Below are positions 1-16,246 of a DNA stretch of 16,246 nt, piece by piece (position 1 is the first letter of the stretch; each line of letters begins with the position of its first letter). Position numbers and translations under genes: made by a program. A model generated the notes under the pieces. That model was not told the origin of the DNA. It ran no database searches and saw only the letters and a program-made list of their open reading frames with translations. The stretch is from a virus (Duplodnaviria; Heunggongvirae; Uroviricota; Caudoviricetes), in IMG/VR virus record IMGVR_UViG_2698536348_000016. One strand, written 5' to 3'.

Positions 1-80
1 GGGGAAAAACGAGTATTTTTAGTCATCCTGTTTACCTCTTTCTCAGGAAGTTTAGTCTCCAGGATTCCCGGGGCGGTTCA
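1..80 (-). mobile_element. IS3-family insertion sequence end (IS629/IS1203-like): terminal repeat and first codons of orfA
   Basis: Minus strand from 80 to 1 reads TGAACCGCCCCGGGAATCCTGGAGACTAAACTTCCTGAGAAAGAGGTAAACAGG, then ATG ACT AAA AAT ACT CGT TTT TCC (MTKNTRFS...) running off the window. A TG-initiated terminal repeat followed by RBS and orfA start is the IS3-family layout, and the N-terminus matches my recollection of IS629 OrfA. The pdeR frame breaks exactly at 80/81. Only 80 nt are visible, so the family call is tentative. Confidence 0.5.
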
Positions 81-622
81 TTGCCGCTTCGAAAAAATAC
101 ACGGTTATTGCGCCTGGATGCCGCAGCTTCACGACGGCTCATAAACAGTTTAAACACGCTTTGCCCAATGACGTCGTGTTCTTTCAACCCTGTGTAATCT
201 TCACATAACCGATTGAAGCGTTGGATATTCCCCCGGCTGTCGAGAATCACTATTGCGGAATGTGCTTCAGAAACTACCTGCTCAGCAAAGGAAAGCCCGT
301 GTGATAAATCACGAGCAACCGCCGGTGTGTCATGCCATGCAGACGCGTTGCCAGCCCATTCCCGTTTATTGATTTTTCGTCCTACCAGATGCACAGAAAG
401 ATCGCTTTCATCGACGGTCAGACTCATCATCAGGCTGGAGGTGATGACCGTCATTTCCCTGATGCGAGCAGCCTGTTCGGCAGATAACTGCAATGTACGA
501 TCAGGTTCTGTGGTTTCGGTGGTAGAAAAGCGCAAAACATCGCTGCTTTCCGTCAACCGCCAGTATGGATTGTGCGATCCGAGAAAGTTGTACAACGTTG
601 TGGACTCCCTAACGGTTTTCAT
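81..622 (-). pseudogene. pdeR: pdeR (yciR/gmr) 5' fragment, c-di-GMP phosphodiesterase N-terminal PAS region, interrupted by the IS
   Basis: ORF 32..622 starts MKTVRESTTLYNFLGSHNPYW... with GGAGG RBS 9 nt upstream of the ATG at 622. The expected protein is about 660 aa (PAS-GGDEF-EAL), but the frame runs into IS sequence after about codon 181 (..RVFFRSGN) and stops at 32. Confidence 0.6.
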
Positions 623-821
623 GATGCATATCCTCCGGTTAACTGCGGAGTCCGCGGTTAAATAAAAGGAACAACATGACTTACATGAAATTAACGGCGG
701 CTAAACGCATTGTTTTTTTTATATATTTATTTGTAATCCAGTTTTGGAAAAACGCCAGTTTTCAAACGAAAGTCAGTTAAAAAATCTGCCTGGATATAAC
801 GAAGGTAGAGCGGGGAAATAA

Positions 822-848
822 ACGGCCCATCCATGAGGAATGGGCCGT
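822..848 (-). terminator. Intrinsic terminator downstream of rnb
   Basis: Hairpin ACGGCCCAT / ATGGGCCGT (9-bp arms) directly after the rnb stop; on the minus strand it is followed by a T-rich stretch (TTTATTT). Confidence 0.55.
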
Positions 849-857
849 GAAAGGAGA

Positions 858-2792: not shown

Positions 2793-2859
2793 AATTGTCT
2801 ATTTTGGTGGCCATTAGAGCGGCTGACAGTTTTACGCGAATCTGTCTGACGCGGCAAGG

Positions 2860-3987
2860 TTAATATGTCTCACCCAACGCGATTTTTAAGCGATTTATCC
2901 AGCCACACAGCCCGCTCCATACCAGCAGATTAATAATCTGCGTTGATGATTTTTCGTGTTCGAGTAAAGGGCTGAACTGGGCGGCGCTAAAGCGATCGGG
3001 TGCTCGGGTCAGCCATTGTATCGCCTGAACGGTAGCGTGCTCAACAGAATGACGGTCAGCCCATTGGTTAATTTCATTTTCGCCCTTGCGCAGAAGGGGG
3101 CTGATTTTTTTATATTCATTTGATGAATCCATACAGGCGGCAAAACAAGCAGGACTGCCATTTATCCGCGCGCATAACAACGCCGCAAGCTTATTATCCG
3201 GCTGTGTATTAACCCGTGTACTGTTTAACAACCTTTCGAGAAGGGAAAGTGAAATAGGGTGGAGAGAGAGTGTTTCGGCCAGTTGGCAAAGTTCTGCTGT
3301 TGAACTTTTTGTGTACTCTTCAGGTAGTTTTTCCACCTCATAGCTGCTTCGCCAGCGTATTGATTCATCAGCAAACAGTGACGCGTCGGCGTAGTTTTGT
3401 ATTTCCAGACCGGGTAACCAGCGTACCGGGTGCCCGAGATAAGCCTGAAATGTCGCAATGGTCCGCGCCTGAAAGCCAATAAAACCAATGATTTGGTTAA
3501 TGATCACACAGTCCCCGGCAGTAAGACCGACGTCATTCAGATGCTGGCGCGATCGGTTGTCGATAATAGAAGGCGAGCTAGCCAGTTGGCGGGCATATTG
3601 CGTGATTTGTGCCAACCTATGATTGCTTTCCCTGGAGGAATCAGGCCCGGGGAGCGGCGTAAGTCGCGCCGAATAGTAGTTACATAACCGCTGGACGCCG
3701 CAAACCTGAGCAACCGTCAGGGCCGTAGACAAGCGTTCATAAGCGGTGAAGGTCTGTGAACGGGTCACGGTAAGCTGGTCAGGGAACAATTCCACTGCAA
3801 GAACGCGCGCAGGGACCAGCCATGAAAGGAAGGGAGCCAGCGTTTCTTCATCAAGGAGCACGTCGAGCAGAAAGGGATCGCTGACCTTTGCGGCTTCCGG
3901 GACCAGAGGCAGAACGTCATACTCCGCAGTACTGGATTGCGTTTCATGATACCAGTGGCTTTTGCCGGTGATGTGGCGTTGTTCCAT
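2860..3987 (-). CDS. yciW: YciW (CMD-like putative oxidoreductase)
   Basis: ORF track gives 401 aa from 4065, but AAGGAG lies 5 nt upstream of the internal ATG at 3987 ([15 protein letters not shown]...), giving 375 aa; synteny between rnb and fabI. Confidence 0.85.
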
Positions 3988-4092
3988 GGGCGCTCCTTGG
4001 TCGTAAAGGAAATCGTTATCCTGACGCAAGGCGGGAAGGGGAGAAAGACGGATCGGCGATAACAAATATCAGAAAGGTATAACAGAGATAAC

Positions 4093-4111
4093 GGGCGGCA
4101 GAACGCCGCCC
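4093..4111 (-). terminator. Hairpin downstream of fabI (probable terminator)
   Basis: GGGCGGC agaac GCCGCCC perfect 7-bp stem 20 nt after the fabI stop; the U-tract on the minus strand is imperfect (GTTATCTCTGTTAT). Confidence 0.4.
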
Positions 4112-4131
4112 AATATTTACCAACAGAATGA

Positions 4132-4920
4132 TTATTTCAATTCGAGTTCGTTCATTGCAGCGATGCTGAAACCGCCGTCAACGTGGACCACTTCACCGGA
4201 GATACCGGCAGAGAGATCGGAGCACAGGAATGCCGCGGAGTTACCCACATCTTCAATAGTAACGGTACGGCGAATCGGGGTAACGGCTTCGCAATGAGCC
4301 AGCATTTTGCGGAAGTCTTTGATACCGGAGGCCGCCAGAGTACGGATCGGACCAGCAGAGATGGCGTTAACACGCACACCTTCCGGACCCATCGCGTTCG
4401 CCATATAGCGCACGTTCGCTTCCAGAGACGCTTTTGCCAGACCCATAACGTTGTAGTTCGGGATAGCGCGCTCAGCGCCAAGGTAGGAAAGGGTCAGCAG
4501 GGCAGAACCCGGATTCAGCATGGAGCGGCAAGCTTTTGCCATTGCAACGAAGCTGTAGGAGCTGATGTCGTGGGCAATTTTGAAGCCTTCACGGGTAACG
4601 GCGTTAACATAGTCACCATCCAGCTGATCGCCAGGTGCAAAACCAATAGAGTGTACGAAACCGTCAAATTTCGGCCAAACTTTCCCCAGTTCAGCGAACA
4701 TAGTGTCGATGCTGGCATCTTCTGCAACATCGCACTGCAGAACGATGTCAGAACCCAATTGAGCGGCAAATTCTTCTACGCGGCCTTTCAGTTTGTCGTT
4801 CTGGTAGGTGAATGCCAGTTCAGCTCCTTCGCGGTGCATCGCCTGAGCGATACCGTAGGCGATGGATAGTTTGCTGGCAACACCGGTTACCAGAATGCGC
4901 TTACCGGAAAGAAAACCCAT
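4132..4920 (-). CDS. fabI: Enoyl-ACP reductase (NADH) FabI
   Basis: 262-aa [43 protein letters not shown]..., SDR-family signature and length of FabI. Confidence 0.96.
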
Positions 4921-5084
4921 AGCTTTAATCCTTATTGTTGATGCTTGTTGTGCCTGAAAATCAGGCGATTCGTCGTTTTAGTAAACAGTACGAACAGATA
5001 AACGGTTATTATAATCAACCTGGCTGTGAGTAGCTATAGTTGCCAGGTCCGACCGGAGCAGGCTGCGGCAGGGTGGGCGCTTTT

Positions 5085-5124
5085 CCCCTTACCCTAACCC
5101 TCTCCCCAGAGGGGCGAGGGGACC
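5085..5124. repeat. GC-rich imperfect palindromic intergenic repeat (Box C/REP-like), copy A
   Basis: CCCCTTACCCTAACCCTCTCCCCAGAGGGGCGAGGGGACC; shares ACCCT(A/C)ACCCT and GGGCGAGGGG blocks in inverted orientation with copy B at 5271..5306. Confidence 0.4.
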
Positions 5125-5270
5125 ATATTGTGCAAATATTGTTACCCCAGCAACAAACAGGCTCATACAGCCCCTAACCCTTTTATGGCGATGGCTGGGA
5201 TGGTTCAGACCTTGCCGAATATTCTCCAGCACTGTCTCCATGTTTTCACCACAACAGCTATTCGGCTCGG

Positions 5271-5306
5271 TCGGCCCCCTCGCCCTTTCAGGGTGAGGGT
5301 GACCGG
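5271..5306. repeat. GC-rich imperfect palindromic intergenic repeat, copy B (inverted relative to A)
   Basis: TCGGCCCCCTCGCCCTTTCAGGGTGAGGGTGACCGG; its reverse complement aligns with copy A; overlaps the ycjD stop. Confidence 0.4.
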
Positions 5307-5638
5307 CGGTTCAGTTCCTGCAGAATAATCTCCAGCACCGCCTCCTCATTACAATCAATCTCGTTATGCCAGAAACGCAGCACGGTCCAGCTCTGCGACT
5401 CAAGCCAGCTAGTGCGCCTGGTATCATAGGCAACTGCCAAATCATGCTGCCCACCATCCAGCTCAACGACTACGCGCGCCGAGCAGCAAGCAAAATCGAG
5501 AATGTAGCTCCCCACCGGATGTTGACGGCGAAATTTGAAATCACCAAAACGTCGGCTGCGAAGATATCGCCAGAGCTTTCGTTCCTGCAAAGTGAGATTG
5601 CGTCTTAAATCACGCGCATTTGATTTTATTTTATCCAT
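5288..5638 (-). CDS. ycjD: YcjD, DUF559 endonuclease-fold protein
   Basis: ORF 5288..5641 begins at GTG; the ATG at 5638 gives MDKIKSNARDLRRNLTLQERKLWRYLRSRRFGDFKFRRQHPVG..., 116 aa; position between fabI and sapF. Confidence 0.8.
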   Translation of the reverse strand: MDKIKSNARDLRRNLTLQERKLWRYLRSRRFGDFKFRRQHPVGSYILDFACCSARVVVELDGGQHDLAVAYDTRRTSWLESQSWTVLRFWHNEIDCNEEAVLEIILQELNRRSPSP

Positions 5639-5640
5639 CA

Positions 5641-5679
5641 CCTCATTCTGACAAGATTTAATCTCTTGTCAGAATGAGG
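5641..5679. repeat. Perfect inverted repeat (16-bp arms, 7-nt spacer) between sapF stop and ycjD start
   Basis: CCTCATTCTGACAAGA tttaatc TCTTGTCAGAATGAGG; no U-tract on either strand, so not a classical intrinsic terminator. Confidence 0.6.
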
Positions 5680-5708
5680 TGGATAATCTGGAAGGAGGAT
5701 TCAGAAAA

Positions 5709-6515
5709 TTAGCGATCTTTACGCCACGCATCCGCTGTCAATGCTTCGCCAAAGTGCCCGGCAATCAGCCGTTTGGTGAGTTCATGCAGCGGCGATGCCA
5801 GCACATCCGCGGTGCTGCCTCGTTCGACAACCTCACCCTGATGCATCACCAGCACCTGGTCGCTAATGTGCTTCATCATTCCGATATGCTGGGTAACATA
5901 AATATACGAAATGCCCTGTTTTTCCTGTAACTCCAGCATCAGATTAATCAACTGCGAACGCATCGACATATCCAGTGAAGCGAGGGCTTCATCGGCAATA
6001 ATGACTTTTGGGCGCAATATCAGCGCGCGCGCCAGACCCAGACGCTGTTTTTGTCCGGGTGCCAACATATGCGGATAGTAACTGACGTGATCCGGTAGCA
6101 GCCCAACCATACGCATCGTTTCAATAATCTGTTTGCGACGCTGTTCCGGTTCCAGGTCGGTGTTCAGGCGCAGTGGAAAATCCAGAATTTGCGAGATACG
6201 TTGACGGGGATTCAACGAGGTCGAAGGATCCTGAAAAATCATGCGAATACGCTGACTGCGGAAGGAATAATCGCCAAAATGCAGTGGATGATCGTCAATC
6301 AATAACTCGCCGCTGGTAGGCTCTATCATTCCCGCCAGCATTTTTGCCAGCGTGGATTTACCCGAACCATTCTCGCCAATAATCGCCAGTGTCTGGCCTT
6401 CACGTAGCGTAAAGCTCAAGGGTTTTACCGCTTCTACGGTCTGACGACGAAACCAGCCGGTCCGGTAGCGGAACGTTTTACTTAAATTACGCACTTCAAG
6501 CAGCGTTTCGATCAT
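5709..6515 (-). CDS. sapF: Peptide ABC transporter ATP-binding protein SapF
   Basis: 268-aa ORF MIETLLEVRNLSKTF... with Walker A GENGSGKST and ABC signature; follows sapD. Confidence 0.95.
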   Translation of the reverse strand: MIETLLEVRNLSKTFRYRTGWFRRQTVEAVKPLSFTLREGQTLAIIGENGSGKSTLAKMLAGMIEPTSGELLIDDHPLHFGDYSFRSQRIRMIFQDPSTSLNPRQRISQILDFPLRLNTDLEPEQRRKQIIETMRMVGLLPDHVSYYPHMLAPGQKQRLGLARALILRPKVIIADEALASLDMSMRSQLINLMLELQEKQGISYIYVTQHIGMMKHISDQVLVMHQGEVVERGSTADVLASPLHELTKRLIAGHFGEALTADAWRKDR

Positions 6516-6516
6516 C

Positions 6517-7509
6517 TCACTCTTTCTCCATGTTCAGCGGGAAATGACAGGCATAGAGATGATTTTTCGCCCCCGTCAAACGTGGCGTCACAATGCATTC
6601 TCGTTGTGCATACGGGCAACGTGGCCCCAGACGACAACCAATCGGTAACTGTTCCAGCAGTGGGATAGCGCCGGGCAGCGTATTGAGGCGACTTTTATGC
6701 GGCATCGCGCTGCCGAAGTCTGGTATCGCGCGGATCAGCGCCTGGGTATAAGGATGATGTGGCATCGTCACCAACTCCTTACTCGGCGCGGTTTCCACTG
6801 TTTGACCGCAGTAAAGCACGTTAATTTTATCCGCCCATTGGCTAAGCATTTGTAAGTCATGGCTGATAAGCAAAATAGTGGTATTGCTGTTTTGGTTGAG
6901 ACGCGTCAGCAGGCGAAAGATTTGCGCCTGGGTTGTTGGCTCCATTGAGTTGGTCGGTTCGTCAGCAATCAGCAGACGCGGTTGATTCGCCAGTGCAATG
7001 GCTATCATCACTTTCTGACATTCACCTTCGGTCAACTCATAGGGAAAACTGCGCATCGCATCTTTGTGATCTTTAATCCCCACGCGGTGCAGCAGTTCAA
7101 TGGCACGGCGTTTGCGCCAGCCAAAACGCTGCCACCAACGGCCTTTATAGGTCCAGGCTGGGATGTTTTGCATCAACTGGCGACCCACACGTTCTGAAGG
7201 GTCAAGACACGACTGCGGTTCCTGGAAAATCATCGACACGTTATGGCCAACCAGTTTGCGCCGTTCGCGTGCGGAGAGACGCAGCAAATCGATATCATCA
7301 AAACGCATACGGTCAGCAGTAACACGCCAGTTATCTTTATTCACCCCACAAATCGCTTTCGCAATCAAACTCTTGCCGGAACCGGATTCACCAACAAGAC
7401 CGCGGATTTCACCTTCGGTTAAGGTCATACTTACCCGGTCGACGGCTTTAACCCACTCATCACCGGTTTTAAATTCAATGGTCAGGTTACGAATATCGAG
7501 TAATGGCAT
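6517..7509 (-). CDS. sapD: Peptide ABC transporter ATP-binding protein SapD
   Basis: 330-aa [29 protein letters not shown]... with Walker A GESGSGKS; start overlaps the sapC stop. Confidence 0.95.
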
Positions 7510-8399
7510 TATTCCACCCCCGCAATAATCGCACGACGAACGCCATCGCCAAGGAGGTTAACCAACAACACGCTAATCATAATTGCCGCACCTGGCAGCA
7601 TGACAGTCCACGGGGCGACATAAATCAGTTCCAGCGCATCACCGAGCATCGCTCCCCATTCAGGCGAGGGGAGTTGTGCGCCGAGATCGAGAAAGCCCAG
7701 CGCGGCGATATCGAGAATTGCCATCGACAGTGCGCGGGTGATCTCGGTGACCAGCCCGGCGGTGATGTTTGGCATCACAGCAAACCAGAGAATATTCAGC
7801 GTTGATGCGCCATCCAGACGGGCGGCGATAACGTACTCTTTTTCCAGTTCGTCATGCACCATGCTGTAAATCGAACGTACCATACGCGGCAGCAATGCCA
7901 GCCAGACAGCAAACATAGCGTGGGACAAACTCGGTCCGGCAAACGCTACAACGATAATTGCCAACAGCAGCGAAGGGATCGCCAGTAAGGTATCCAGAAT
8001 ATGGTTAAGCACCGCTGAGCGGAGGCCGTGTGTCGCCCCGGCGAAGGTGCCCAGTACCAGGCCACAGATCGTCGCGGCAAGCGTCACCACAAATGCGCCA
8101 CCCACGGTTGGCGCAGCTCCGCTCAGTAAACGGCTTAAAACATCGCGTCCGAGGTCGTCAGTCCCCAGGAAGAAAGAAACTTCGCCATAGCGCGACCATG
8201 ACGGCGGCAATAATTGATAACCGAGAAATTGCTGGTCGATGCCGTAAGGCGCAAACCAGCCGCCAAAAATACACAGTACAGCCAGCCCCGCGCAGCCGTA
8301 CAGGCCGACCATCGCAGAGGCGTCACTATAAAATTTGCGCCAGGCGGTACGCAGCGTGCCCGGCGGGCGCTTTTCGCTGTATACGCTATCGTAAGGCAT
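7509..8399 (-). CDS. sapC: Peptide ABC transporter permease SapC
   Basis: 296-aa [38 protein letters not shown]..., multi-TM permease; RBS GAAGG 6 nt upstream of the ATG at 8399. Confidence 0.95.
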
Positions 8400-8533
8400 G
8401 ATTACCTTCTTTAAACTTATTTGCTTTGATTCGTTTTGCTTTAGTTTTTTCTTTCATTTCAATCACATGCCATATTTAGGTGCTTTATTCTTGTTTGTTG
8501 CTATTCGTTTCTTGTAGTTCCAATTTAAGAAAA
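8400..8533. other. Host/prophage junction region (candidate attL and integrase arm-site region)
   Basis: Composition switches abruptly to AT-rich non-coding DNA immediately upstream of the sapC ATG; short direct repeats (TTGCTTT x2, TTCTTGT x2). No sapB reading frame is present. The exact core is not determinable without an empty-site sequence. Confidence 0.45.
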
Positions 8534-8535
8534 AT

Positions 8536-8574
8536 GTGTACACTAAAGTGTATACGAAACACGAGGGTGTACAC
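8536..8574 (+). promoter_or_regulatory. Three copies of the 8-bp palindrome GTGTA(C/T)AC overlapping the integrase RBS/start (candidate operator)
   Basis: GTGTACAC at 8536..8543, GTGTATAC at 8548..8555, GTGTACAC at 8567..8574; the last overlaps the GAGGG RBS. Confidence 0.5.
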
Positions 8575-8575
8575 A

Positions 8576-9763
8576 TTGCTCACCGATACAAAACTAAGAA
8601 AGTCTCTTGGCAAAAAACGAGACAAAATCGAAGTGCTTTCTGATGCACAAGGGCTGAATGTTCGGTTATCAACTTCCGGCAGTATAACATTTTTTTACCG
8701 CTACCGATGGAATGGCAAGGCTGCACAACTGGCGATCGGCAGTTATCCGTCCATTTCATTGGCTCAGGCCAGGGAGCGTCGCCAGCAGTTTAGAGACTGG
8801 CTCACTGAGGGACTGGATCCCCGTCGTCAGGTTATGCTGGAAAAGCAGAAAAAGTCTCAGGCTATGACCGTTAAAGAAGCATTTGATTACTGGGAGCAAC
8901 ATTATTGTATTCCCGAAGGTCTGAAAAAACTGAAGGTCAACAGGCGCGATTTTAATAACCACATTGCGCCCGTACTAGGAAATGTCATTGTCGAACAGAC
9001 AACAAAAGCTCACTGGCTGAGCCTGTTTGATTCGATGGGACGCCGTGTGGTCACTGGGCAGATGCTGGGCTTAATGCAACGAACTTTCAGGTTTTGTTCA
9101 AACAGGGGGGTGATAAGCATTAATCCGCTTGAAAGCCTGAGGCGTTCAGATGTGGGCATGGCTGCGGCAACCAGAGACAGGAAACTGAGCGATGAAGAGA
9201 TCAAGATTGTCTGGTCGGCTTTGTCTGATATGGGGGAAAGGCAGAAGCTGGTTGTTAAATTTCTTCTTATGACGGGGTGCAGAACCGCAGAGATTAGAAC
9301 AGCAAGATGGGAATGGTTCGATTTTAACGAGAATACATGGACTGTTCCTGCAAGCGAATATAAAACGGGTAAGACCGTCAGAAGAGCGTTGCCTCCGGCG
9401 ATCGTGAAACTGATGCAGGAAGTGAAGAAAACCTCCGTTTCTCAGCATGTTCTTACGCGGGCAAGATATAACGGCCCTGAAGATGATAAGCCACCGCAAC
9501 AACCTCATATCGCTTTGTTTTCTGCTCAGATCATCGCTAAAACGGGGATGAAAACATGGTCCCTTCATGACTTGAGAAGAACGGTGGCAACACGATTATC
9601 CGAGTTAGGTGCGCCACCACATGTGGTTGAAAAGTTATTAGGGCATCATATGTCCGGCGTAATGGCTCGTTATAATCTGCATGATTATCTCGAAGATCAA
9701 AGGCATTGGTTGCAGGTGTGGCAGAATTATCTTGAAGGGTTAGTTGATGCGCCATTAACCTGA
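8576..9763 (+). CDS. int: Tyrosine recombinase/integrase, P4/CP4-57-like with N-terminal arm-binding (DUF4102-type) domain
   Basis: ORF 8480..9763. N-terminal LTDTKLRKSLGKKRDK...GLNVRL...FFYRYRWNGK...SLAQARERR fits the arm-binding domain; catalytic motifs TGCRTAEIR, HDLRRT, LGHH...ARY. Start chosen at TTG 8576 (GAGGG RBS 7 nt upstream, N-terminus then aligns with LTD-type integrase starts); in-frame ATG at 8534 is the alternative. Confidence 0.88.
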   Translation: MLTDTKLRKSLGKKRDKIEVLSDAQGLNVRLSTSGSITFFYRYRWNGKAAQLAIGSYPSISLAQARERRQQFRDWLTEGLDPRRQVMLEKQKKSQAMTVKEAFDYWEQHYCIPEGLKKLKVNRRDFNNHIAPVLGNVIVEQTTKAHWLSLFDSMGRRVVTGQMLGLMQRTFRFCSNRGVISINPLESLRRSDVGMAAATRDRKLSDEEIKIVWSALSDMGERQKLVVKFLLMTGCRTAEIRTARWEWFDFNENTWTVPASEYKTGKTVRRALPPAIVKLMQEVKKTSVSQHVLTRARYNGPEDDKPPQQPHIALFSAQIIAKTGMKTWSLHDLRRTVATRLSELGAPPHVVEKLLGHHMSGVMARYNLHDYLEDQRHWLQVWQNYLEGLVDAPLT

Positions 9764-9969
9764 GCATTATTTCTTTCCCACTCCAGAATATCAGAAAGCC
9801 ACCAACGATTGGGGTTTCCCTTTATTGTTGGTTTAGGAAATGGTTTGCTGAGGGACTTTGGCTTTCTGTCTGGAGTACTCCAGAAATACAGAGTGCTTCG
9901 TGAAATTTTATATCGTTCCAGAATATCTTTGGTTAACAAGATTTCATTTGTTTTTGTAATGTCGTTCAT
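9727..9969 (-). CDS. AlpA/excisionase-like small DNA-binding protein
   Basis: 80-aa ORF with GGAG RBS 7 nt upstream; ...ILLTKDILERYKISRSTLYFW...FPKPTIKGNPNRWWLSDILEWERNN resembles AlpA/Xis-type winged-helix proteins; 3' end overlaps the integrase 3' end by 37 nt convergently. Confidence 0.65.
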   Translation of the reverse strand: MNDITKTNEILLTKDILERYKISRSTLYFWSTPDRKPKSLSKPFPKPTIKGNPNRWWLSDILEWERNNAQVNGASTNPSR

Positions 9970-10000
9970 TTTATTCTCCAGTTGAATTGTTTAATCATCG

Positions 10001-10021
10001 AAAAACCGCCCGAAGGCGGTT
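10001..10021 (-). terminator. Intrinsic terminator (minus strand) between the 83-aa ORF and the xis-like gene
   Basis: AACCGCC cgaa GGCGGTT hairpin; on the minus strand it is followed by TTTTT. Confidence 0.55.
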
Positions 10022-10022
10022 G

Positions 10023-10274
10023 TCAGTTGATTGATGTGCGGCGCATTTTGCGAAGGCTGGCAATATGCTTTTCCTTCTCAATTTCTGCTTTAATCATGTG
10101 TAGTTCGTTGTGATCGATTCGCTCAAATTCTGCATTAAATGCGCTAATTGAAGCGGCTCTGGTTCTCCCATCCAGCCTTCGGAAGATTACCTGCGTCAGA
10201 GTGATTTTGCAGACTTCAACCGGATAGTTGTTGGCATCGACGAAAGACTGCCCGCGCTGGATTAGAACGAACAC
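10023..10274 (-). CDS. Hypothetical prophage protein (83 aa, GTG start)
   Basis: ORF from track with AAGGA about 9 nt upstream of the GTG; basic C-terminus; lies in the slot between exo and xis where lambdoid phages carry small early genes. No recognisable motif. Confidence 0.4.
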   Translation of the reverse strand: MFVLIQRGQSFVDANNYPVEVCKITLTQVIFRRLDGRTRAASISAFNAEFERIDHNELHMIKAEIEKEKHIASLRKMRRTSIN

Positions 10275-10322
10275 CGGTAGTATTCCTTAATTGTCATATC
10301 ATTTGCACCTCGTTGCTACTGG

Positions 10323-11003
10323 CTATCGCCATTGCTCCCCAAATACAAAACCAATTTCAGCCAGTGCCTCGTCCATTTTTTCGATGAACTCCGGTACCAT
10401 TTCGTCAAAAACCTCCATGTATTTTTCATCCCGTTCGACCACGACATAATGCAGGCCTTCACGCTTCATACGCGGGTCATAGTTGGCAAAGTACCAGGCA
10501 TCTTTTCGCGTCACCCACATGCTGTACTGCACCTGGGCCATGTAAGCCGACTTTATGGCCTCGAAACCACCGAGCCGGAATTTCATGAAATCCCGGGAGG
10601 TAAACGGGCATTTCAGTTCAAGGCCGTTGCCGTCACTGCATAAACCATCGGGAGAGCAGGCGGTGCGCATACTTTCGTCGCGATAGATGATCGGGGATTC
10701 AGTAACATTCACGCCGGAAGTGAACTCAAAGAGGGCTCTGGCGTCGTTCTCGTACTGTTTTCCCCAGGCCAGCGCTTTAGCGTTAACTTCCGGAGCCACA
10801 CCGGTGCAAACCTCAGCCAGCAGGGTGTGGAAGTAGGACATTTTCATGTCAGGCCATTTCTTTCCTGAGCGGGGTTTTGCTATCACGTTGTGAACTTCTG
10901 AAGCGGTGATGACGCCGAGCCGTAATTTGTGCCACGCATCATCCCCCTGTTCGACAGCTCTCACGTCGATCCCTGTACGTTGCAGGATAATGTCCGGTGT
11001 CAT
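10323..11003 (-). CDS. exo: Lambda-type exonuclease (Red alpha, Exo)
   Basis: 226-aa [53 protein letters not shown]..., near-identical to lambda Exo as I recall it; start overlaps the bet stop. Confidence 0.96.
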
Positions 11004-11785
11004 GCTGCTACCTTCTGCTCTGTGACTTTCTGTTTCAGGAATCCAAGAACCTTCACAGCTTCAGCCTGTGTTAGTTCTGAAGATGTGTAAATGTTGCGGC
11101 GAAAAATCTGGGAACAGAGCGGCAACAGGTCGTCATCCCACGTTTTTTCCATGGAAGTAAGAAGGGCGTTAATTTCCGACATGGTTTCTTCGTTAACCGG
11201 GGTGATGTCGCGTTCCGGCTGACGTTCTGTAGTATATGCAGTATTTTCGACAATACGCTCGGCTTCATCCTTGTCATAGATGCCAGCAAATCCGAAGGCC
11301 AGGCGAGCACACTGAATCATGGCTTTGTGCCGTAACATCCGTTTGGGATGCGACTGCCACGGTCCGGTGATTTCTCTGCCTTCGCGGGTTTTGAATGGTG
11401 CGCGGCGACATTCATCCATCCACTCGGTAACGCAGATCGGGTGATTGCGATCTTTGCGGTAAATCCGGCATGTACAGGACTCATTGTCCTGCTCAAAGTC
11501 CATGCCATCAAACTGCTGGTTTTCATTGATAATGCGGGACCAGCCATCAACGCCAACCACCGGAACGATGCCGTTCTGCTTGTCAGGGAAGGCGTAAATT
11601 TCTTTCGTCCAGGGATTAAGGCCGTACTGGTTGGCGACGATCAACAATGCGATAAATTGCGCATCGCTGGCATCACCTTTAAATGCCGTCTGGCGAAGAG
11701 TGGTGATTAGTTCCTGTGGGTCGACAGAATCCATGCCGACACGTTCAGCCAGCTTCCCTGCCAGCGTTGCGAGTGCTGTACTCAT
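11000..11785 (-). CDS. bet: Lambda-type single-strand annealing protein (Red beta, Bet)
   Basis: 261-aa [69 protein letters not shown]..., matches lambda Bet. Confidence 0.96.
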
Positions 11786-11790
11786 CCGTT

Positions 11791-12087
11791 TTATACCTCT
11801 GAATCAATATTAATTTGGTGACGGGCGATGGTTTCAGCCATGTAGCGGATGTGTTCTGCCATGCGTTCCTGAAAATCGACATCGTCATCAAATGCACGGG
11901 AAATAGCTTTTTTGCTGGCCCCGTGACGTTGCAGATTATCGATGCATAGCGATTCAAACAGGTGTTGGGGCAGACCTTTTTCCAGGTCGTCTGCCAGCTC
12001 AGCTTCAGTTTCTTCACGGGCAATTTGCTGGTAGTGTCGTGCCCATGACTGCTCTTCAATGCGATCGGGGATAAGCCAGGCATTCAT
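11791..12087 (-). CDS. gam: Gam (RecBCD inhibitor), short GamS-length form
   Basis: 98-aa [29 protein letters not shown]...[20 protein letters not shown], matches the C-terminal 98 aa of lambda Gam; ATGA overlap with the upstream ORF. Confidence 0.9.
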
Positions 12088-12494
12088 GATTTATCACCTT
12101 CGAAATTTTCAAGCCTGTTGGCAATCATGATGGCGATATCAGGGATTGCTGGCGCTGTGGCTATACATGCGGGGTTGGCGCACAAACCATAGACGGCGGC
12201 AATCACGAGCTGTCTTTTCCAGTCGAGAGTTACTGGCTCAGAATTGGCGTCATCGCCGGACGTATCACTGCCTGGCTCGTTCTGAACAACGGTTTCGCCC
12301 TCCTGAGCGGCATCAACAGAGTTTTCCTGAATGATCTTCTCCTCAGTTTGTGCTGAGTCTTCTCCATCAGCGGCGTCATTTTCTCCAAAAGTTTCAGCGT
12401 AAGTTTCATCTCCCATTACTGGACCACAGTCAGGGCAATGGCCGCCACCGTTCTGACTGCATGTGGTGCAAACCTTTTCCACTTCCTGTTGCAT
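12084..12494 (-). CDS. Hypothetical zinc-ribbon / acidic protein in the kil position upstream of gam
   Basis: ORF 12084..12551 begins at GTG; first ATG at 12494 gives [25 protein letters not shown] (CxxC...CxxC), then a strongly acidic segment, then a hydrophobic/Cys-containing C-terminus. Translationally coupled to gam. Confidence 0.55.
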
Positions 12495-12623
12495 TACTGG
12501 CCCTGGAAGTGGGAGCGAGTCTGCGCCGCGCTGCGGGAGCTGAACAAGCACCGGGATATTGTTCGACAGATTGTCGATTCATCCGGTCGTATTGTGTCGG
12601 AAAAGTGATTGCCGGAGGCGCTT

Positions 12624-13019
12624 ATGGCGAAACCTTTTACACACGAACAGCGGGAAGAACTGAAGGCACGAATTATCGGATTGGTACGCAAAAATGAACG
12701 CATGACGATATCGCAACTGGAGAGAGCGACGGGAGCAGGCTGGCATTCAGTCAGACGTTGCCTTGTGGATGTACTGGCTTGTGGCGATTTATACATGTCC
12801 GGTAAATACGGTGTTTTTGCATCAGAACAGGTGTATCGCGTATGGCGTAAGACACCGGAGAAAACAACTGACCAGACATTGATTCGAAAGTTACCAGACG
12901 GAGAAATTCGCCGCTACGATAGACGCCTGAACATAATCTGTCGCGAGTGCCGGAATAGTGAAGTTATGCAGCGCGTGCTGGCTTTCTATCAGGGGAATTT
13001 TCAGGAGGCGGTACTGTGA
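12624..13019 (+). CDS. Hypothetical protein (131 aa), first gene of the opposite-strand cassette
   Basis: ATG at 12624 with GGAGG RBS 5 nt upstream; MAKPFTHEQREELKARIIGLVRKNERMTISQLERATGAGWHSVRRC...; possible helix-turn-helix-like segment; family unknown. Confidence 0.6.
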   Translation: MAKPFTHEQREELKARIIGLVRKNERMTISQLERATGAGWHSVRRCLVDVLACGDLYMSGKYGVFASEQVYRVWRKTPEKTTDQTLIRKLPDGEIRRYDRRLNIICRECRNSEVMQRVLAFYQGNFQEAVL

Positions 13020-13075
13020 GTAAATTAGCTATCAGGCTTCAATTGTCGCTGGCATTCGCATCAAAGGAGAATGAG

Positions 13076-13660
13076 ATGACCACTTTTACAAAAGAGCAGT
13101 TAATCAGTCATGTTAGTGAAAATGTAAAGGCGATGAAATTTGCAGTAAAACAGACAGCATTCAAAAATTCTCTCGAGGCAATTGAGTTGGATTTAGCACT
13201 GGCCCTTGTTGCTCAGGCTTCGCTGGAAGCAGAGCCCGTGCTTTATATGAATCGATTTACCGGAAAGACATTCTCACTGGAAGAGCAACCCGGTGCTGAT
13301 AAGGAACCGGAAATATACGTGCCGCTATATGCTGCCCCGCCAGACAGCGCCGCCATGCTTCAGGCTGGAAACTTTCGGGAAAAGAAGGGTTCGTCAACCA
13401 ATAATTTTCGGGAAATCTCGGAAACGTCAACCAACCATCCGGTAACTCTGGATGGTTGGATAAGCTGTAGTGAGCGAATGCCGGATGACGGTCAGCACGT
13501 AATTATTTTATGTGATGGCGCATTCGTTCTTTATGCGCAATATCGAGACGGTGAGTTTTTTGATGTAGTCCGTGATGGTGATGAATTTTTCGAAACACAG
13601 AGCCGCAATGTAACCGACTGGATGCCGCTACCAGAACCGCCGCAGGAGGTGCGCCAATGA
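13076..13660 (+). CDS. Hypothetical protein with C-terminal DUF551-like domain
   Basis: ATG at 13076 with AAGGAG RBS 7 nt upstream; C-terminus ...DGWISCSERMPDDGQHVIIL...VTDWMPLPEPP resembles the phage DUF551 motif; internal tandem repeat (NFRE...STN x2) at 13369..13434. Confidence 0.7.
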   Translation: MTTFTKEQLISHVSENVKAMKFAVKQTAFKNSLEAIELDLALALVAQASLEAEPVLYMNRFTGKTFSLEEQPGADKEPEIYVPLYAAPPDSAAMLQAGNFREKKGSSTNNFREISETSTNHPVTLDGWISCSERMPDDGQHVIILCDGAFVLYAQYRDGEFFDVVRDGDEFFETQSRNVTDWMPLPEPPQEVRQ

Positions 13661-13740
13661 ACTGGCCTGAAGCATTTGCAATTACAGGCGTTGCTATGGC
13701 TATCACCTTTTTAGTATATGTTATTTGTCGGTGGGGGTAA
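13657..13740 (+). CDS. Small hydrophobic peptide (27 aa), translationally coupled to the upstream gene
   Basis: ATGA overlap with the stop of the preceding gene; MNWPEAFAITGVAMAITFLVYVICRWG, single predicted TM segment; below the ORF-track length cutoff. Confidence 0.35.
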   Translation: MNWPEAFAITGVAMAITFLVYVICRWG

Positions 13741-13775
13741 AAACGTTCGCCGGGATTAACACCAAAGGAGGGAAT

Positions 13776-13880
13776 ATGTCGGATGATATATCACTGGCAA
13801 TGGAAGGTGCGCTGGCTGTTGTTGCTGTTGTGGGCGTTTACTGCCTGGTTGTGTTTTTGATGGATCGACTAGGGAACTGA
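13776..13880 (+). CDS. Small hydrophobic peptide (34 aa)
   Basis: AAGGAGGG RBS 4 to 5 nt upstream of ATG; MSDDISLAMEGALAVVAVVGVYCLVVFLMDRLGN, single predicted TM segment. Confidence 0.45.
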   Translation: MSDDISLAMEGALAVVAVVGVYCLVVFLMDRLGN

Positions 13881-13890
13881 ATTCATTACG

Positions 13891-13908
13891 ATATGGGAAT
13901 TCCCATAT
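13891..13908. repeat. Perfect 18-bp palindrome ATATGGGAATTCCCATAT
   Basis: Self-complementary 18-mer 11 nt downstream of the peptide stop and just upstream of the putative hok promoter. Confidence 0.6.
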
Positions 13909-13922
13909 CGGGTAAAAACGGT

Positions 13923-13950
13923 TTGCGGTAAAGCGAGAGTTAAGTAGAAT
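13923..13950 (+). promoter_or_regulatory. Putative hok mRNA promoter
   Basis: TTGCGG (-35), 16-nt spacer, TAGAAT (-10); predicted 5' end near 13957 (GGGTGCTTGAGG), which is complementary to the 3' segment 14331..14343. Confidence 0.35.
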
Positions 13951-13994
13951 TGCTGCGGGTGCTTGAGGCTGTCTGCCTCGGGCATGCCACCGTA

Positions 13995-14090
13995 AGGCAG
14001 ACAGAGAAAAGCCCCAGTTAACATTACGCGTCCTGCAAGACGCCTAACATTAATCTGAGGCCAATTTCATGCTAGACACATGTAGGTTAG
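13995..14090 (-). ncRNA. Expected Sok-like antisense RNA region (approximate)
   Basis: Inferred from hok/sok architecture: antisense to the leader and upstream in-frame start; minus strand has TTGCCT, 17 nt, TAACCT promoter-like hexamers near 14113..14085 and hairpin GCGTC ctgcaa GACGC (plus 14027..14042). Boundaries not resolved. Confidence 0.3.
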
Positions 14091-14125
14091 CCTCTTACGC
14101 GCCGAAAGGCAAGGAGAAGCAGGCT

Positions 14126-14281
14126 ATGAAGCAGCAAAAGGCGATGTTAGTCGCCCTGATCGTCATCTGTATTACCGTCGTAGTGACGGCACTGGTAACG
14201 AGGAAAGACCTCTGCGAGGTACGAATCCGAACCGGTCAGACGGAGGTTGCTGTCTTCACAGCTTACGAACCTGAGGAGTAA
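14126..14281 (+). CDS. hok: Hok/Gef-family type I toxin (51 aa)
   Basis: MKQQKAMLVALIVICITVVVTALVTRKDLCEVRIRTGQTEVAVFTAYEPEE, close to HokD/HokC (Gef) as I recall them; AAGGAG RBS 9 nt upstream; ORF track 14069..14281 includes an in-frame upstream ATG. Confidence 0.9.
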   Translation: MKQQKAMLVALIVICITVVVTALVTRKDLCEVRIRTGQTEVAVFTAYEPEE

Positions 14282-14349
14282 GAGACCAGGCGAGGGAGAA
14301 ATCCCTCGCCACCTCTGATGTGTCAGGCATCCTCAACGCACCCGCACTT

Positions 14350-14371
14350 AACCCGCTTCGGCGGGTTTTTT
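14350..14371 (+). terminator. Intrinsic terminator of the hok transcript
   Basis: AACCCGC ttcg GCGGGTT followed by a T6 run; the same 20-mer recurs at 15191..15210. Confidence 0.7.
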
Positions 14372-14490
14372 CACTTACTGTGGTTGTGAATACGATTGGT
14401 ATTAGGCTATGCTAACAACATTAGCCTGACTAATTTTGTATTGACTTGATTTTTGTTAAAGAACAGGACGGAGAAGTAAGGGTACACCCA

Positions 14491-14670
14491 ATGAGCTACG
14501 CACTAAAAAAACACCCGCGATTGACTATTCCCCCTCGCGATAAAAGCGTTGTGGCAGCTCCGCGCCCGGCTATCGATGAAAATTGCACTCATCGTGAGCA
14601 GGTGAAAAATGCTTTCGATTTCGGTTTTTCTCGTTACGAGAAGGCAATGGAAGAACTTTCAAAAGTGTAA
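14491..14670 (+). CDS. Small protein (59 aa), candidate antitoxin partner of the Doc-family toxin
   Basis: ATG at 14491 (ORF track starts at TTG 14446); MSYALKKHPRLTIPPRDKSVVAAPRPAIDENCTHREQVKNAFDFGFSRYEKAMEELSKV; stop 18 nt before the toxin ATG. Not Phd-like by eye, so the role is inferred from position only. Confidence 0.4.
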   Translation: MSYALKKHPRLTIPPRDKSVVAAPRPAIDENCTHREQVKNAFDFGFSRYEKAMEELSKV

Positions 14671-14688
14671 TGATGGGTATTGTGCTCT

Positions 14689-15174
14689 ATGGCTGAGATT
14701 GTTGAAGGAGTGCACTACCTTTCGTTTGATGATCTTACCGAAATTAATCGCCTTTTAATTGAGCTTCAAACACCAGATGAACCTGTTAGTGTGCTGAGTG
14801 TTGATAATTTAAGTTCTTCTCAGTCTCGTCCCAGCATGGTTCGATGGTATGAACAGACTAATGACATGTTTGTACTGGCATCAGTATTGATTGAAAGTCT
14901 GATTCAGAATCATCCATTTGCTAATGCAAACAAACGAACAGCTATGATGGCTGGTTATGTCTTCTTGTTGTTGAATGGCTATGAGTTAACAGCACCAGGC
15001 GATGAAATCGTGGAAATGGCAGAGGGACTGGCCTGCAAAACCTATACTCGAGAAGATCTCGAGAACTGGTTGTGTTATTGGTCTCGTGCGTATGACAGCC
15101 GGGAATTATGTAAAACAGGCGCAACTATTGTTTTGTATGAAACTATCAAGCTTAAAATAGAACAGCAAAACTAA
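14689..15174 (+). CDS. Doc-family (Fic-fold) toxin
   Basis: Contains HPFANANKRTAMMAGYVFLLLNGYEL, matching the Doc motif H-x-F-x-(D/N)-(A/G)-N-K-R and following helix (P1 Doc has HIFNDANKRTALNSALLFLRRNG as I recall). ATG 14689 chosen; TTG 14680 is the alternative. Confidence 0.8.
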   Translation: MAEIVEGVHYLSFDDLTEINRLLIELQTPDEPVSVLSVDNLSSSQSRPSMVRWYEQTNDMFVLASVLIESLIQNHPFANANKRTAMMAGYVFLLLNGYELTAPGDEIVEMAEGLACKTYTREDLENWLCYWSRAYDSRELCKTGATIVLYETIKLKIEQQN

Positions 15175-15188
15175 AGGTGCTTCTAATG

Positions 15189-15210
15189 AAAACCCGCTTC
15201 GGCGGGTTTT
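15189..15210. terminator. Bidirectional intrinsic terminator between convergent doc-like and higA-like genes
   Basis: AAAACCCGC ttcg GCGGGTTTT: perfect hairpin with an A-run upstream and T-run downstream. Confidence 0.7.
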
Positions 15211-15224
15211 GTTGTATTGGAGTA

Positions 15225-15542
15225 TCATGATATTACCTGGATCCCGTTTTTCTCTACGACTGAAAGAAGGCGAAGAGCGGCACCTCCCGGCCGTTTTACA
15301 CCACGTTCCCAGTCTGATATCAGGTTTTTACTGACGTTGAGGTATCTGGCAAAAACAGGTTGAGACAGATGCTCTCGTTCGCGCAGTGCACGGATCCTTT
15401 CCGGAGACATTACCGGCGCTGGCTGGAGACAAGTTTCATCGAATTCTCGCATAGTCTGTTTCGTTACTGCGCCGATATCATGAAGCGATTCCATCATTTC
15501 ATGTACGGATGCAAGCGCATCACTGCGGTAATTTTTACTCAT
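15225..15542 (-). CDS. HigA-like antitoxin (XRE-family HTH)
   Basis: 105-aa ORF MSKNYRSDALASVHEMMESLHDIGAVTKQTMREFDETCLQPAPVMSPERIRALREREHLSQPVFARYLNVSKNLISDWERG...; ATG overlaps the last codons of the upstream toxin frame (CCCAATGAGTAA), toxin-first order typical of higBA. Confidence 0.85.
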   Translation of the reverse strand: MSKNYRSDALASVHEMMESLHDIGAVTKQTMREFDETCLQPAPVMSPERIRALREREHLSQPVFARYLNVSKNLISDWERGVKRPGGAALRLLSVVEKNGIQVIS

Positions 15543-15905
15543 TGGGTACCTCCGTAAACTGACCCTGTAGAATCAGTTGTGCCAGTTGTTCATCTGTTAG
15601 ATTGAGTACGTGAGGAGCCGCCTTCCGAAATGCACTTTCCGCAGTAGCGGTTATATTTTCACGTTCATTTTTTGCGTATGCATATACGAAAAAGGCCCTT
15701 GTGCCGACGCGATAGAAAATGATTGTGCGATAACCGCCAGATTTGCCGCCACCGACTCGTGGCAGACGTTGCTTGATAACGCCGTTACCCAGGTTTGCTG
15801 AGATAAGCCCGTTATCAGCCTGTTTAACAATTTCGCGCAGTGATTGGTCGGATATTTTGTTTTGCGTGCAAATCGCTCAAACCAGGCGTTTTTAAAAATG
15901 CGCAT
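15535..15905 (-). pseudogene. HigB/Gp49-like RelE-superfamily toxin, disrupted by a frameshift in an A-run
   Basis: ATG at 15905 gives MRIFKNAWFERFARK, then the frame derails to the unrelated tail of ORF 15651..15968; the -1 frame continues NKISDQSLREIVKQADNGLISANLGNGVIKQRLPRVGGGKSGGYRTIIFYRVGTRAFFVYAYAKNEREN...QFTEVPNE to a stop at 15535 but has no start codon of its own. Break maps to the A4 run at plus 15860..15863. Confidence 0.75.
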
Positions 15906-15926
15906 TTTTTGTTCCGTTATTAATGT

Positions 15927-15941
15927 ATAACACATAGTGTT
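15927..15941 (-). promoter_or_regulatory. Candidate operator palindrome upstream of the higB-like gene
   Basis: TAACAC ata GTGTTA perfect 6-bp inverted repeat about 22 to 36 nt upstream of the toxin ATG. Confidence 0.4.
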
Positions 15942-15972
15942 ACATTGCGTAGGGATCTGCAATGCCATCAGT

Positions 15973-16002
15973 TTGACAACGTCGCGTGTTCGGGGCTATA
16001 TT
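15973..16002 (+). promoter_or_regulatory. Near-consensus sigma70-type promoter
   Basis: TTGACA (15973..15978), 18-nt spacer, TATATT (15997..16002); divergent from the higB-like promoter region. Confidence 0.5.
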
Positions 16003-16007
16003 CCTCA

Positions 16008-16083
16008 CGCGCCAGCAAAACCTGGCGTCGGGATTAGCACCCCGGATATCGAAACGGTGCATAACCGCGCTGGCGGTTTTTTT
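16008..16083 (+). ncRNA. Candidate small RNA or terminated leader (about 76 nt)
   Basis: Lies between the promoter above and an intrinsic terminator AACCGC gctg GCGGTT plus T7 (16063..16083); contains a further hairpin CGCCAG caaaac CTGGCG; the only ORF across it is a GTG-started frame that reads through the terminator. Confidence 0.4.
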
Positions 16084-16246
16084 ATGCGCTAAGCACAGTC
16101 ACATTCGCGATTTATGGCGGGCTGTGTGGGGGAGCCGAATGAGGTGTACTGACAATAGCGGACACTACCATTTGTTCTTTTTTTAAGCAGCTATCTGATG
16201 ATATTTTTCCCTGAAGGCTGCCGGGGAGATATTCCCCAGACGAGAG

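Follow-up and report, generated by a model that had tools for sequence, protein, structure and literature searches.

Directly upstream of a hok toxin gene in a stretch of prophage DNA lie two open reading frames (ORFs) of 27 and 34 codons, here called ORF-A and ORF-B. Do such short frames encode real membrane peptides, and if so, what might those peptides do? The stretch that we analysed (hereafter, the window) is the whole of the IMG/VR virus record IMGVR_UViG_2698536348_000016, 16,246 nucleotides (nt) in length. A first reading of its sequence (the original prediction) had described the two frames as a tandem pair of mini membrane peptides, had offered small membrane toxins, holin-like effectors or modulators of membrane proteins as possible roles and had named ribosome profiling and a Ka/Ks-type comparison of homologous prophages as checks. 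Our analysis suggests that they are probably two independent genes encoding minimal single-pass inner-membrane proteins, which are carried in an accessory nin-like region and would act through helix–helix contacts.

The existence of the frames is of little weight in itself, as 39 ORFs of at least 20 amino acids (aa) occur within positions 12500–15000; reading frames alone therefore prove nothing, and the case rests on comparative evidence. Both mini ORFs are present as described (Table 1), and their coding nature is supported by conservation, by codon-level selection and, for ORF-B, by published ribosome profiling. The comparison of homologous prophages revealed purifying selection in the proposed frame of each ORF. 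The products are each predicted to be essentially one transmembrane (TM) helix, with an uncharged stretch of 19 residues in both (residues 6–24 of ORF-A and 11–29 of ORF-B).

ORF-A and its relatives in phages

The ATG of ORF-A overlaps the TGA stop codon of the DUF551 gene as ATGA, in keeping with the translational coupling originally proposed, and the coupling was seen throughout the family of ORF-A homologues, which we gathered using DNA patterns and tblastn. A degenerate DNA pattern representing the first nine ORF-A codons, with which viral contigs were scanned, matched at least 120 of these contigs, and tblastn returned matches in 92 phage records. Phages of the family include 933W, VT1- and VT2-Sakai, BP-4795, Min27, the P1-like SJ46 and the virulent Vequintavirinae phage Av-05. 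Two more scans added short hydrophobic members, on contigs of 38–58 % GC. A loosened viral scan yielded mostly chance matches inside longer ORFs, six short hydrophobic ORFs being retained, while a contig scan with a pattern that was too loose (TGGCCNGANGCNTTYGCNAT) was discarded as it returned chance matches only, from unrelated phyla (loci L128–L207).

In total, the family comprises 24 distinct peptides of 22–34 aa. All collected peptides carry the N-terminal motif M-x-W-P-[E/D]-A-[F/I/V]-A, in part a consequence of the search patterns, and, after it, a single hydrophobic helix; the ending CRWG is frequent, and other members have C-terminal halves that are unrelated yet hydrophobic. The codons of the motif differ synonymously between contigs (CCT/CCA/CCC, GCA/GCC/GCG/GCT and TTT/TTC). 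Among the 27-codon members, the pooled ratio of non-synonymous to synonymous polymorphism (pN/pS) was 0.34 in frame vs 0.89 and 1.14 in the shifted frames, and similar values for the motif (0.37) and the helix (0.36) indicate that both halves are under selection. Comparison of the window ORF-A with three diverged copies gave Fisher p values of 1.6e-4 to 3.7e-3, the value for locus L006 being 1.6e-4.

Without exception, the start codon of a family member overlaps or abuts the preceding stop codon (ATGA or TAATG). At least five unrelated upstream genes are coupled in this way, namely DUF551/EaA genes, genes for Ea22-like coiled-coil proteins and those for several unrelated small proteins, and the gene after ORF-A is often tightly coupled too. 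The DUF551 gene itself lies outside the small-protein family, ORF-A homologues elsewhere following genes unrelated to it. In Av-05 (L418, NC_025830, 74413–74493), an intact, unannotated homologue (MTWPEAFTTVGVVMAVAFAVYSVCRWG) shows the same ATGA coupling to its upstream gene. A plasmid-borne copy is shortened to 25 aa by an in-frame 6-nt deletion. We also observed a common variant in which a TGG-to-TGA change at codon 26 leaves 25 aa and removes the final W-G (L420, L421, L426 and eight viral contigs), implying that the C-terminal WG is not essential. The yfdS region of the K-12 prophage CPS-53 contained no ORF-A homologue, and K-12 data sets are thus uninformative here.

Searches of Pfam, PHROGs, NCBIfam, PADLOC and PDB returned nothing significant for ORF-A. 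Several weak matches were rejected: PTR2 (Pfam, E≤1), which was sub-threshold, and OadG_rel_small, the best NCBIfam match (14.8 bits against a cut-off of 25), as reflections of helix composition, and phrog_38566 (E value 0.0065) and phrog_4493 (E value 0.19) because other family members did not reproduce them. The same five resources hold no 22–34-aa TM family for exo-xis or nin regions, and to our knowledge none has been described. Existing records can be misleading at these loci. RefSeq calls an opposite-strand ORF (PI30_gp73) over the pseudogenised ORF-A copy of phage POCJ13 (L004), and a wrong-frame ORF (URC08898.1) is annotated in phage vB_EcoS-689R5 (L419) after a 1-nt deletion in the ORF-A locus. 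Judged by its sequences, this putative family of small membrane proteins is new, widespread among phages, ordinary-looking and essentially unannotated, and we consider it likely that ORF-A is a real translated membrane peptide.

ORF-B, its cassette and the hok locus

ORF-B starts 35 nt after ORF-A and possesses the strong ribosome-binding site (RBS) of its own that had been claimed for it; this Shine–Dalgarno (SD) sequence (AAGGAGGG) is conserved across haplotypes, with AGGGAGGG the sole variant seen. The protein is common. It is annotated by PGAP in E. coli ML35 and SMN197SH3, its exact sequence occurs in 8485 blocks of an assembly index and its cluster representative is found on at least 997 contigs. 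Of 5426 complete E. coli genomes, 1155 contained the 301-bp (base-pair) segment 13600–13900 and 640 carried both ORFs.

Ribosome profiling that covers ORF-B has already been published for enterohaemorrhagic E. coli (EHEC) Sakai, in which Hücker et al. (2017, PLoS One 12:e0184119, PMC5597208) listed a frame, XECs145, as a novel translated gene with a predicted inner-membrane product of one helix. ORF-B is identical to WP_001278450.1, and Sakai XECs145 contains the same 34 aa with one change, V16I. Footprints over the frame were strong in lysogeny broth (LB) (RNA 79.1 and footprints 346.1 reads per kilobase per million (RPKM), ribosomal coverage value (RCV) 4.35, coverage 0.99; mean RCV of short annotated genes in LB 1.55), weaker in brain heart infusion (BHI) (RNA RPKM 121.3, footprints 150.1, RCV 1.14, coverage 0.84) and nearly gone under cold and salt stress (PMC5597208). 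The frame of that study is longer than ours, at 54 aa, as its non-canonical start lies farther upstream, and it overlaps ORF-A. The 34-aa product is favoured because the SD sequence is conserved, the start codon changes only between ATG and GTG and the spacer carries an indel. A 51-aa extension from a TTG at 13725 was likewise rejected, since it lacks an SD sequence and would be broken by a 1-nt deletion in the spacer that leaves ORF-B intact.

Selection on ORF-B is evident at the codon level. Across 16 haplotypes, pooled pN/pS was 0.25 in frame vs 0.75 and 1.55 in the shifted frames; the polymorphic sites comprised 20 synonymous and 22 mostly conservative non-synonymous ones (Fisher p = 2.3e-5), and the shifted frames gave no signal. 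About 100 copies contained no frameshift, and GTG in place of ATG was the sole start-codon change among them. In an exhaustive HMMER search, close relatives were all that 1.84 billion representatives yielded, and hmmscan against Pfam (E≤1) returned nothing. Using tblastn, ORF-B had no match among phages, probably due to low-complexity masking; blastn recovered the diverged allele of phages Evi and Tritos described below. A full-text literature search for both peptide strings found no paper, XECs145 surfacing in the supplement of one, and neither ORF is mentioned in the EDL933 Ribo-seq supplements, a Hok survey preprint, the hokW paper or a CFT073 small-protein preprint. We conclude that ORF-B is very likely a real translated membrane peptide. 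The protein had been catalogued and ribosome-profiled before; our additions are the structure of its cassette, a second allele and a linkage to hok that is one-sided, none of which, like any function, is described for XECs145 in PMC5597208.

ORF-B and a palindrome together occupy a 175-bp segment with a perfect 11-bp direct repeat (GGGTAAAAACG) at its borders; the segment separates ORF-A from the hok promoter. In phage 933W, the repeat sequence occurs once and the cassette is absent; the ORF-A homologue of this phage (MTWPEAFANVGTVMAVVLVVYSICRWR) ends in ...TAAAAACGGTTTGCGG, leading directly into the hok promoter. The cassette looks like the footprint of an insertion or of microhomology-mediated recombination; no terminal inverted repeats were seen.

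A diverged allele of ORF-B, (V)VLVLKCALAIAAVMAIYCLAVVLMDRLSD, was found in phages Evi and Tritos and in 95 viral contigs. It begins with a GTG after AGGAGG, has approximately 73 % nucleotide identity to the window allele and occurs without ORF-A and without the palindrome. The core ALA.(V/A)AV..(V/I)YCL.V.LMDRL is common to the two alleles, as are small residues that recur at every third position as a stripe ((G/C)11, A14, A17, (G/A)20, C23).

Both ORFs lie directly upstream of a genuine hok locus, as had been stated: the sok/hok leader scored 116.9 bits with Rfam and the hok product 82.6 bits with PF01848, whose match spans 14069–14281. The hok promoter was inferred from the start of the Rfam model at 13957 and from the homologous Evi site, which scores TTGGCG-17-TAGAAT. 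A possible promoter of the Evi-type allele itself (TTGAAT-17-CATATT, 8/12) fell below the scan threshold and is not claimed. The ORF-B stop codon lies 77 nt before the start of the hok transcript in the window, and the Evi-type ORF-B is always 49 nt before it (49 nt before GCTTGAGG). In nearly all of the 95 contigs, a sample drawn on ORF-B, hok follows ORF-B with constant spacing. Of ORF-B itself, PPompW phages and a few contigs retain only the last codons, together with hok. The association is thus one-sided, as ORF-B is almost never found without hok and hok is often found without ORF-B. The view of the two ORFs as a tandem pair did not survive these comparisons. They are independent elements, ORF-A being present in many phages without ORF-B or hok and the ORF-B cassette occurring also without ORF-A.

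The palindrome proved to be longer than the 18 bp first reported, at 22 bp, and none of this kind is expected by chance. As plus-strand RNA it folds into a 9-bp stem with a 4-nt loop (−26.1 kcal/mol, z = −3.06, for 13870–13960), followed by GGGUAAAAACGG; the lack of a U tract means that this is not a classical attenuator. The hairpin is perfectly conserved in the diverged L070 lineage although its flanks differ, and is better kept there than the 3′ end of ORF-B. Changes in the stem amounted to three independent C-to-T substitutions in the 3′ arm, which give G.U pairs in the plus-strand RNA, and one 1-nt deletion. The palindrome stays with hok in PPompW phages, where ORF-B is replaced, and about 57 bp separate its centre from the inferred hok start downstream. 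It is possibly an RNA 3′ end or insulator, which we slightly favour, or a protein-binding site.

On a rival reading, neither peptide is functional as such. ORF-A would be a conserved junction that spaces re-initiation, or a linker for recombination at a mosaic boundary, and ORF-B a leader whose translation serves only to control the hairpin and to keep read-through away from the hok promoter. At the DNA level, the 5′ end of ORF-A barely varies between prophages of E. coli and coincides in every case with a gene boundary, and ORF-A has decayed in some phages. The ORF-B stop codon is 9 nt from the hairpin, such that a terminating ribosome would cover the 5′ arm; the hairpin outlasts the 3′ end of ORF-B in L070 with stem changes that remain G.U-compatible, and 3′ remnants of ORF-B persist with hok where the ORF is destroyed. 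However, purifying selection acts on the amino acids along the full length of both ORFs and in the proposed frames only (pN/pS of ORF-B 0.25–0.38 in frame alone). The ORF-A motif survives synonymous change across 38–58 % GC, the unrelated C-terminal halves of its relatives stay hydrophobic and their length is held at 22–34 aa. The ORF-B allele with approximately 73 % nucleotide identity, which has no hairpin, retains both the YCL..V.LMDRL core and the stripe. With selection at the amino-acid level on both peptides, a pure leader-peptide or spacer role is unlikely.

Possible functions of the two peptides

The reading that we favour is that of two small membrane proteins, with ORF-A made by translational coupling to whichever gene precedes it and ORF-B, a lineage-restricted protein, translated from its own strong RBS on the 175-bp cassette with its RNA hairpin. 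Both peptides would insert with the N-terminus out and the C-terminus in, the N-termini being acidic or neutral and an Arg following each helix, and each would bind a larger or partner membrane protein by helix–helix association. In ORF-A, W3-P4-E5 would lie at one membrane interface and R25-W26 at the other. ORF-B would present an acidic N-terminus and D30-R31 after the helix, and its small-residue stripe, kept in both alleles, is a plausible packing face. ORF-B occurs essentially only beside hok, which makes a partner or purpose connected with Hok, or with how the hok locus is expressed, the most likely; ORF-A would act independently of hok, on a host or phage target. Modulation of membrane proteins is, by analogy, the most plausible of the roles originally suggested, and any specific functional statement about either ORF ranges from doubtful to tentative. 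One such statement would make ORF-B a peptide partner of Hok, a third and hitherto overlooked component of prophage hok/sok that contacts the helix of Hok within the inner membrane and either restrains leaky Hok of lysogens, as a peptide antidote beside the Sok RNA, or tunes what Hok does during induction, and ORF-A a broad phage effector acting on a conserved host membrane protein. Two old, diverged ORF-B alleles would then have been kept just upstream of the hok promoter because of the partnership with Hok. We regard this proposal as doubtful.

Toxicity was the first role suggested in the original prediction, whereby one or both peptides would be membrane-damaging type I-like toxins of the size of TisB, ShoB, DinQ and Ibs and would depolarise the inner membrane, or make it permeable, at prophage induction or loss. 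The size and single hydrophobic helix of the peptides fit this idea, their neighbour hok encodes a real type I toxin and promoter-like hexamers on the minus strand (13800–13773 and 13741–13713) would in principle allow antisense RNAs. These minus-strand matches are, however, about as frequent as chance predicts (3 found, 2.4 expected), and no terminator was detected on that strand. No Rfam RNA was detected on either strand of 13550–13960 at E≤1, a search that does not exclude a novel RNA, and neither peptide matched a toxin or defence family in Pfam (E≤1) or PADLOC. For neither ORF did we find a promoter of its own or a long structured leader: the ORF-A start lies inside the preceding stop codon, which would leave no independent control over a toxin, and the SD sequence of ORF-B is strong and exposed. 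Pore-forming type I toxins usually have a basic C-terminus, whereas that of ORF-B is not basic and the peptide is net acidic (−3). Strong ORF-B footprints in growing, uninduced cultures (RCV 4.35) also fit a lethal product poorly, which is a weak argument. With no toxin-family match, antisense RNA, separate promoter or terminator found, we consider it unlikely that either peptide is a toxin.

Several points weigh against the reading of two small membrane proteins. Some ORF-A copies are dead, with a stop codon and frameshift in Shigella phages POCJ13 and 75/02, a frameshift by 1-nt deletion in 689R5 and truncations elsewhere; such pseudogenes indicate that the gene is dispensable, as is usual for accessory genes. 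Of 26 family members, 20 also have an open antisense frame whose third positions coincide with those of ORF-A, so that the coding strand is not identifiable from third-position variation alone. The exact ORF-A sequence was found nowhere in a collection of 15 billion proteins and has thus never been called as a gene, and the 30-aa minimum ORF length of the Sakai study (PMC5597208) excluded ORF-A, confining direct translation support to ORF-B. The XECs145 signal was in turn computed over a 162-bp frame that extends through the spacer into the end of ORF-A, and the genome concerned holds several near-identical prophage copies. Between the window and Evi alleles of ORF-B, pN/pS was only about 0.55 (p = 0.039), with a similar value in one shifted frame. 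No plus-strand promoter for either ORF was found in the window or in a Sakai-type locus. Regarding the link to hok, the gene has been lost from three contigs in which ORF-A, ORF-B and the palindrome remain, one of the three having IS1 in its hok leader. The majority of hok loci in sequenced phages are without ORF-B, from which it follows that Hok can do without this peptide and that the linkage may reflect simple co-inheritance. A test for co-variation between Hok and ORF-B found none, the same Hok helix variant occurring with both alleles.

A 67-aa antisense ORF (13503–13706) was also considered and rejected, as it lies inside the DUF551 gene and ORF-A, lacks any start or RBS logic and is interrupted by stop codons in 6 of the 26 family members.

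Small membrane proteins are routinely missed by annotation, and the ORF-A family is a strong case, being present in well-studied phages, in some records of which a call on the wrong strand or in the wrong frame stands in its place. Few hypothetical proteins are commoner than ORF-B in the prophages of pathogenic E. coli, and lysogens translate it. Should either peptide modulate a membrane target such as Hok, a transporter or a phage receptor, it would add an extra layer to the interplay of prophage and host and, in the case of ORF-B, to the long-studied hok/sok paradigm. If neither does so, a well-supported correction of annotation is still gained.

Prophage setting and comparison with known systems

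The two ORFs form part of a longer prophage segment (Table 1). Host genes occupy the minus strand at 32–8399 (a gene for a pdeR-like PAS protein, rnb, fabI, DUF559, sapF, sapD and sapC), and an integrase gene at 8480–9763, directly after sapC, marks the start of the prophage. A minus-strand recombination operon follows at 9.1–12.5 kb (DUF4222, YqaJ-type exonuclease, RecT and Gam). From approximately 12506 onward, identity to E. coli ML35 is 100 %, and this part of the window holds DUF977, DUF551, ORF-A, ORF-B, hok, a phrog_2208/Doc pair, a minus-strand helix-turn-helix (HTH)/RelE-like pair and isrK. In intact prophages, the same block is found between replication genes (DnaC-like, DUF1627) and DUF968-RusA-Q, which places it in the nin-like part of the early right operon of a lambdoid prophage.

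Table 1. Positions within the window of ORF-A, ORF-B and the features that surround them
Feature	Position	Strand	Basis or remark
DUF551 (EaA-like) gene	13076–13660	+	PF04448, E value 1.1e-20; WP_000206792.1 in the ML35 RefSeq annotation
ORF-A, 27 aa, MNWPEAFAITGVAMAITFLVYVICRWG	13657–13740	+	Read from the sequence and the ORF list
Left 11-bp direct repeat, GGGTAAAAACG	13735–13745		Overlaps the ORF-A stop codon
ORF-B Shine–Dalgarno sequence, AAGGAGGG	13765–13772	+	Read from the sequence
ORF-B, 34 aa, MSDDISLAMEGALAVVAVVGVYCLVVFLMDRLGN	13776–13880 (stop codon 13878–13880)	+	RefSeq WP_001278450.1; frame XECs145
Perfect 22-bp palindrome, CGATATGGGAATTCCCATATCG	13889–13910	+	11+11 without spacer; 9 nt after the ORF-B stop codon; 0 expected by chance
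Right 11-bp direct repeat, GGGTAAAAACG	13910–13920		Perfect copy of the left repeat
Inferred hok promoter	13922–13950	+	−35 TTTGCG/TTGCGG at ~13922–13928, −10 TAGAAT at 13945–13950, start ~13957
hok/sok/mok type I toxin–antitoxin locus	13957–14281	+	Leader and sok target 13957–14131, mok 14069–14281, hok 14127–14281

In the window, the minus-strand gam/RecT/exonuclease operon meets the plus-strand DUF977 gene at approximately 12506–12609, and the stretch 8480–12609 is without the immunity and replication genes that part these blocks in intact relatives. As these genes are missing between the recombination operon and DUF977, the prophage is probably deleted and defective. No complete E. coli genome in the collection covered at least 80 % of 9000–16246. 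Downstream of hok, a phrog_2208 small protein and a Fic/Doc-family toxin form a toxin–antitoxin (TA)-like pair (14491–15174, plus strand), and an HTH protein and a weak RelE-like ORF form a second (15225–15968, minus strand), giving, together with hok, three addiction-type modules in approximately 2 kb. Close to the window end, Rfam matches to isrK (RF01394, 74.3 bits) and the c4-a1b1 antisense target (RF03163, 47.4 bits), both prophage regulatory RNA elements, lie at 15996–16083 on the plus strand. Insertion sequences were observed at two related loci: the hok leader of L119 contains an IS1 end and the DUF551 gene of L420 an IS3-family element, and both loci retain intact copies of ORF-A and ORF-B.

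This setting bears on the third suggested role, that of holin- or antiholin-like peptides that time lysis. Both products are small hydrophobic phage proteins, and HokW has been reported to help the release of phage Sp5 after induction (PMC8621323). The locus, however, lies between the replication genes and Q, with DUF977 and DUF551 upstream, hok, DUF968, RusA and Q downstream and no endolysin or spanin neighbour; the window contains no lysis genes, and ORF-A is also found in exo-xis regions and P1-like plasmid prophages, far from lysis genes. Typical holins have approximately 60–150 aa, one to four helices, a charged C-terminal tail and often dual starts. The two peptides have 27 and 34 aa, a single start each, C-terminal tails of 3–5 residues and no dual-start motif, and neither matched a holin in Pfam. 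A nin-like early region is not a lysis cassette and the sizes are far below those of known holins, and we regard a holin-like role as highly improbable.

One system to which the peptides may be compared is Hok/Gef (PF01848). Its members are likewise small single-helix inner-membrane peptides of prophages and plasmids, and ORF-B is physically tied to a hok locus. Neither ORF matches PF01848, however, and both lie outside the hok transcript. They are also without the mok-like overlapping frame, sok-like antisense RNA and fold-back leader of hok/sok/mok, and ORF-B differs from Hok in being acidic and in lacking its Cys-containing periplasmic tail.

The accessory genes of lambdoid phages (ea22/eaA/DUF551 genes of the exo-xis and nin regions, and morons) share the niche, ORF-A following Ea22-like or EaA/DUF551 genes in many of these phages, as well as a mosaic distribution and frequent loss. 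The named genes of these regions differ in encoding larger soluble proteins.

In size and hydrophobicity, the two predicted peptides fit the small membrane proteins AcrZ, MgtS, KdpF, CydX and PmrR, which have at most 50 aa and a single helix (reviewed in PMC12648545). Regulators of the AcrZ/MgtS/KdpF type bind larger membrane proteins, are usually overlooked in annotation and are often co-transcribed or translationally coupled (PMC12648545). The two ORFs differ from these in showing no sequence relationship to them and in being phage accessory rather than host genes. Nor does a partner gene adjoin ORF-A or ORF-B, their neighbours being hok and the DUF551 gene, whose product we take to be soluble. 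By analogy, small membrane-protein regulators are nonetheless the class that both ORFs most resemble in their probable mode of action.

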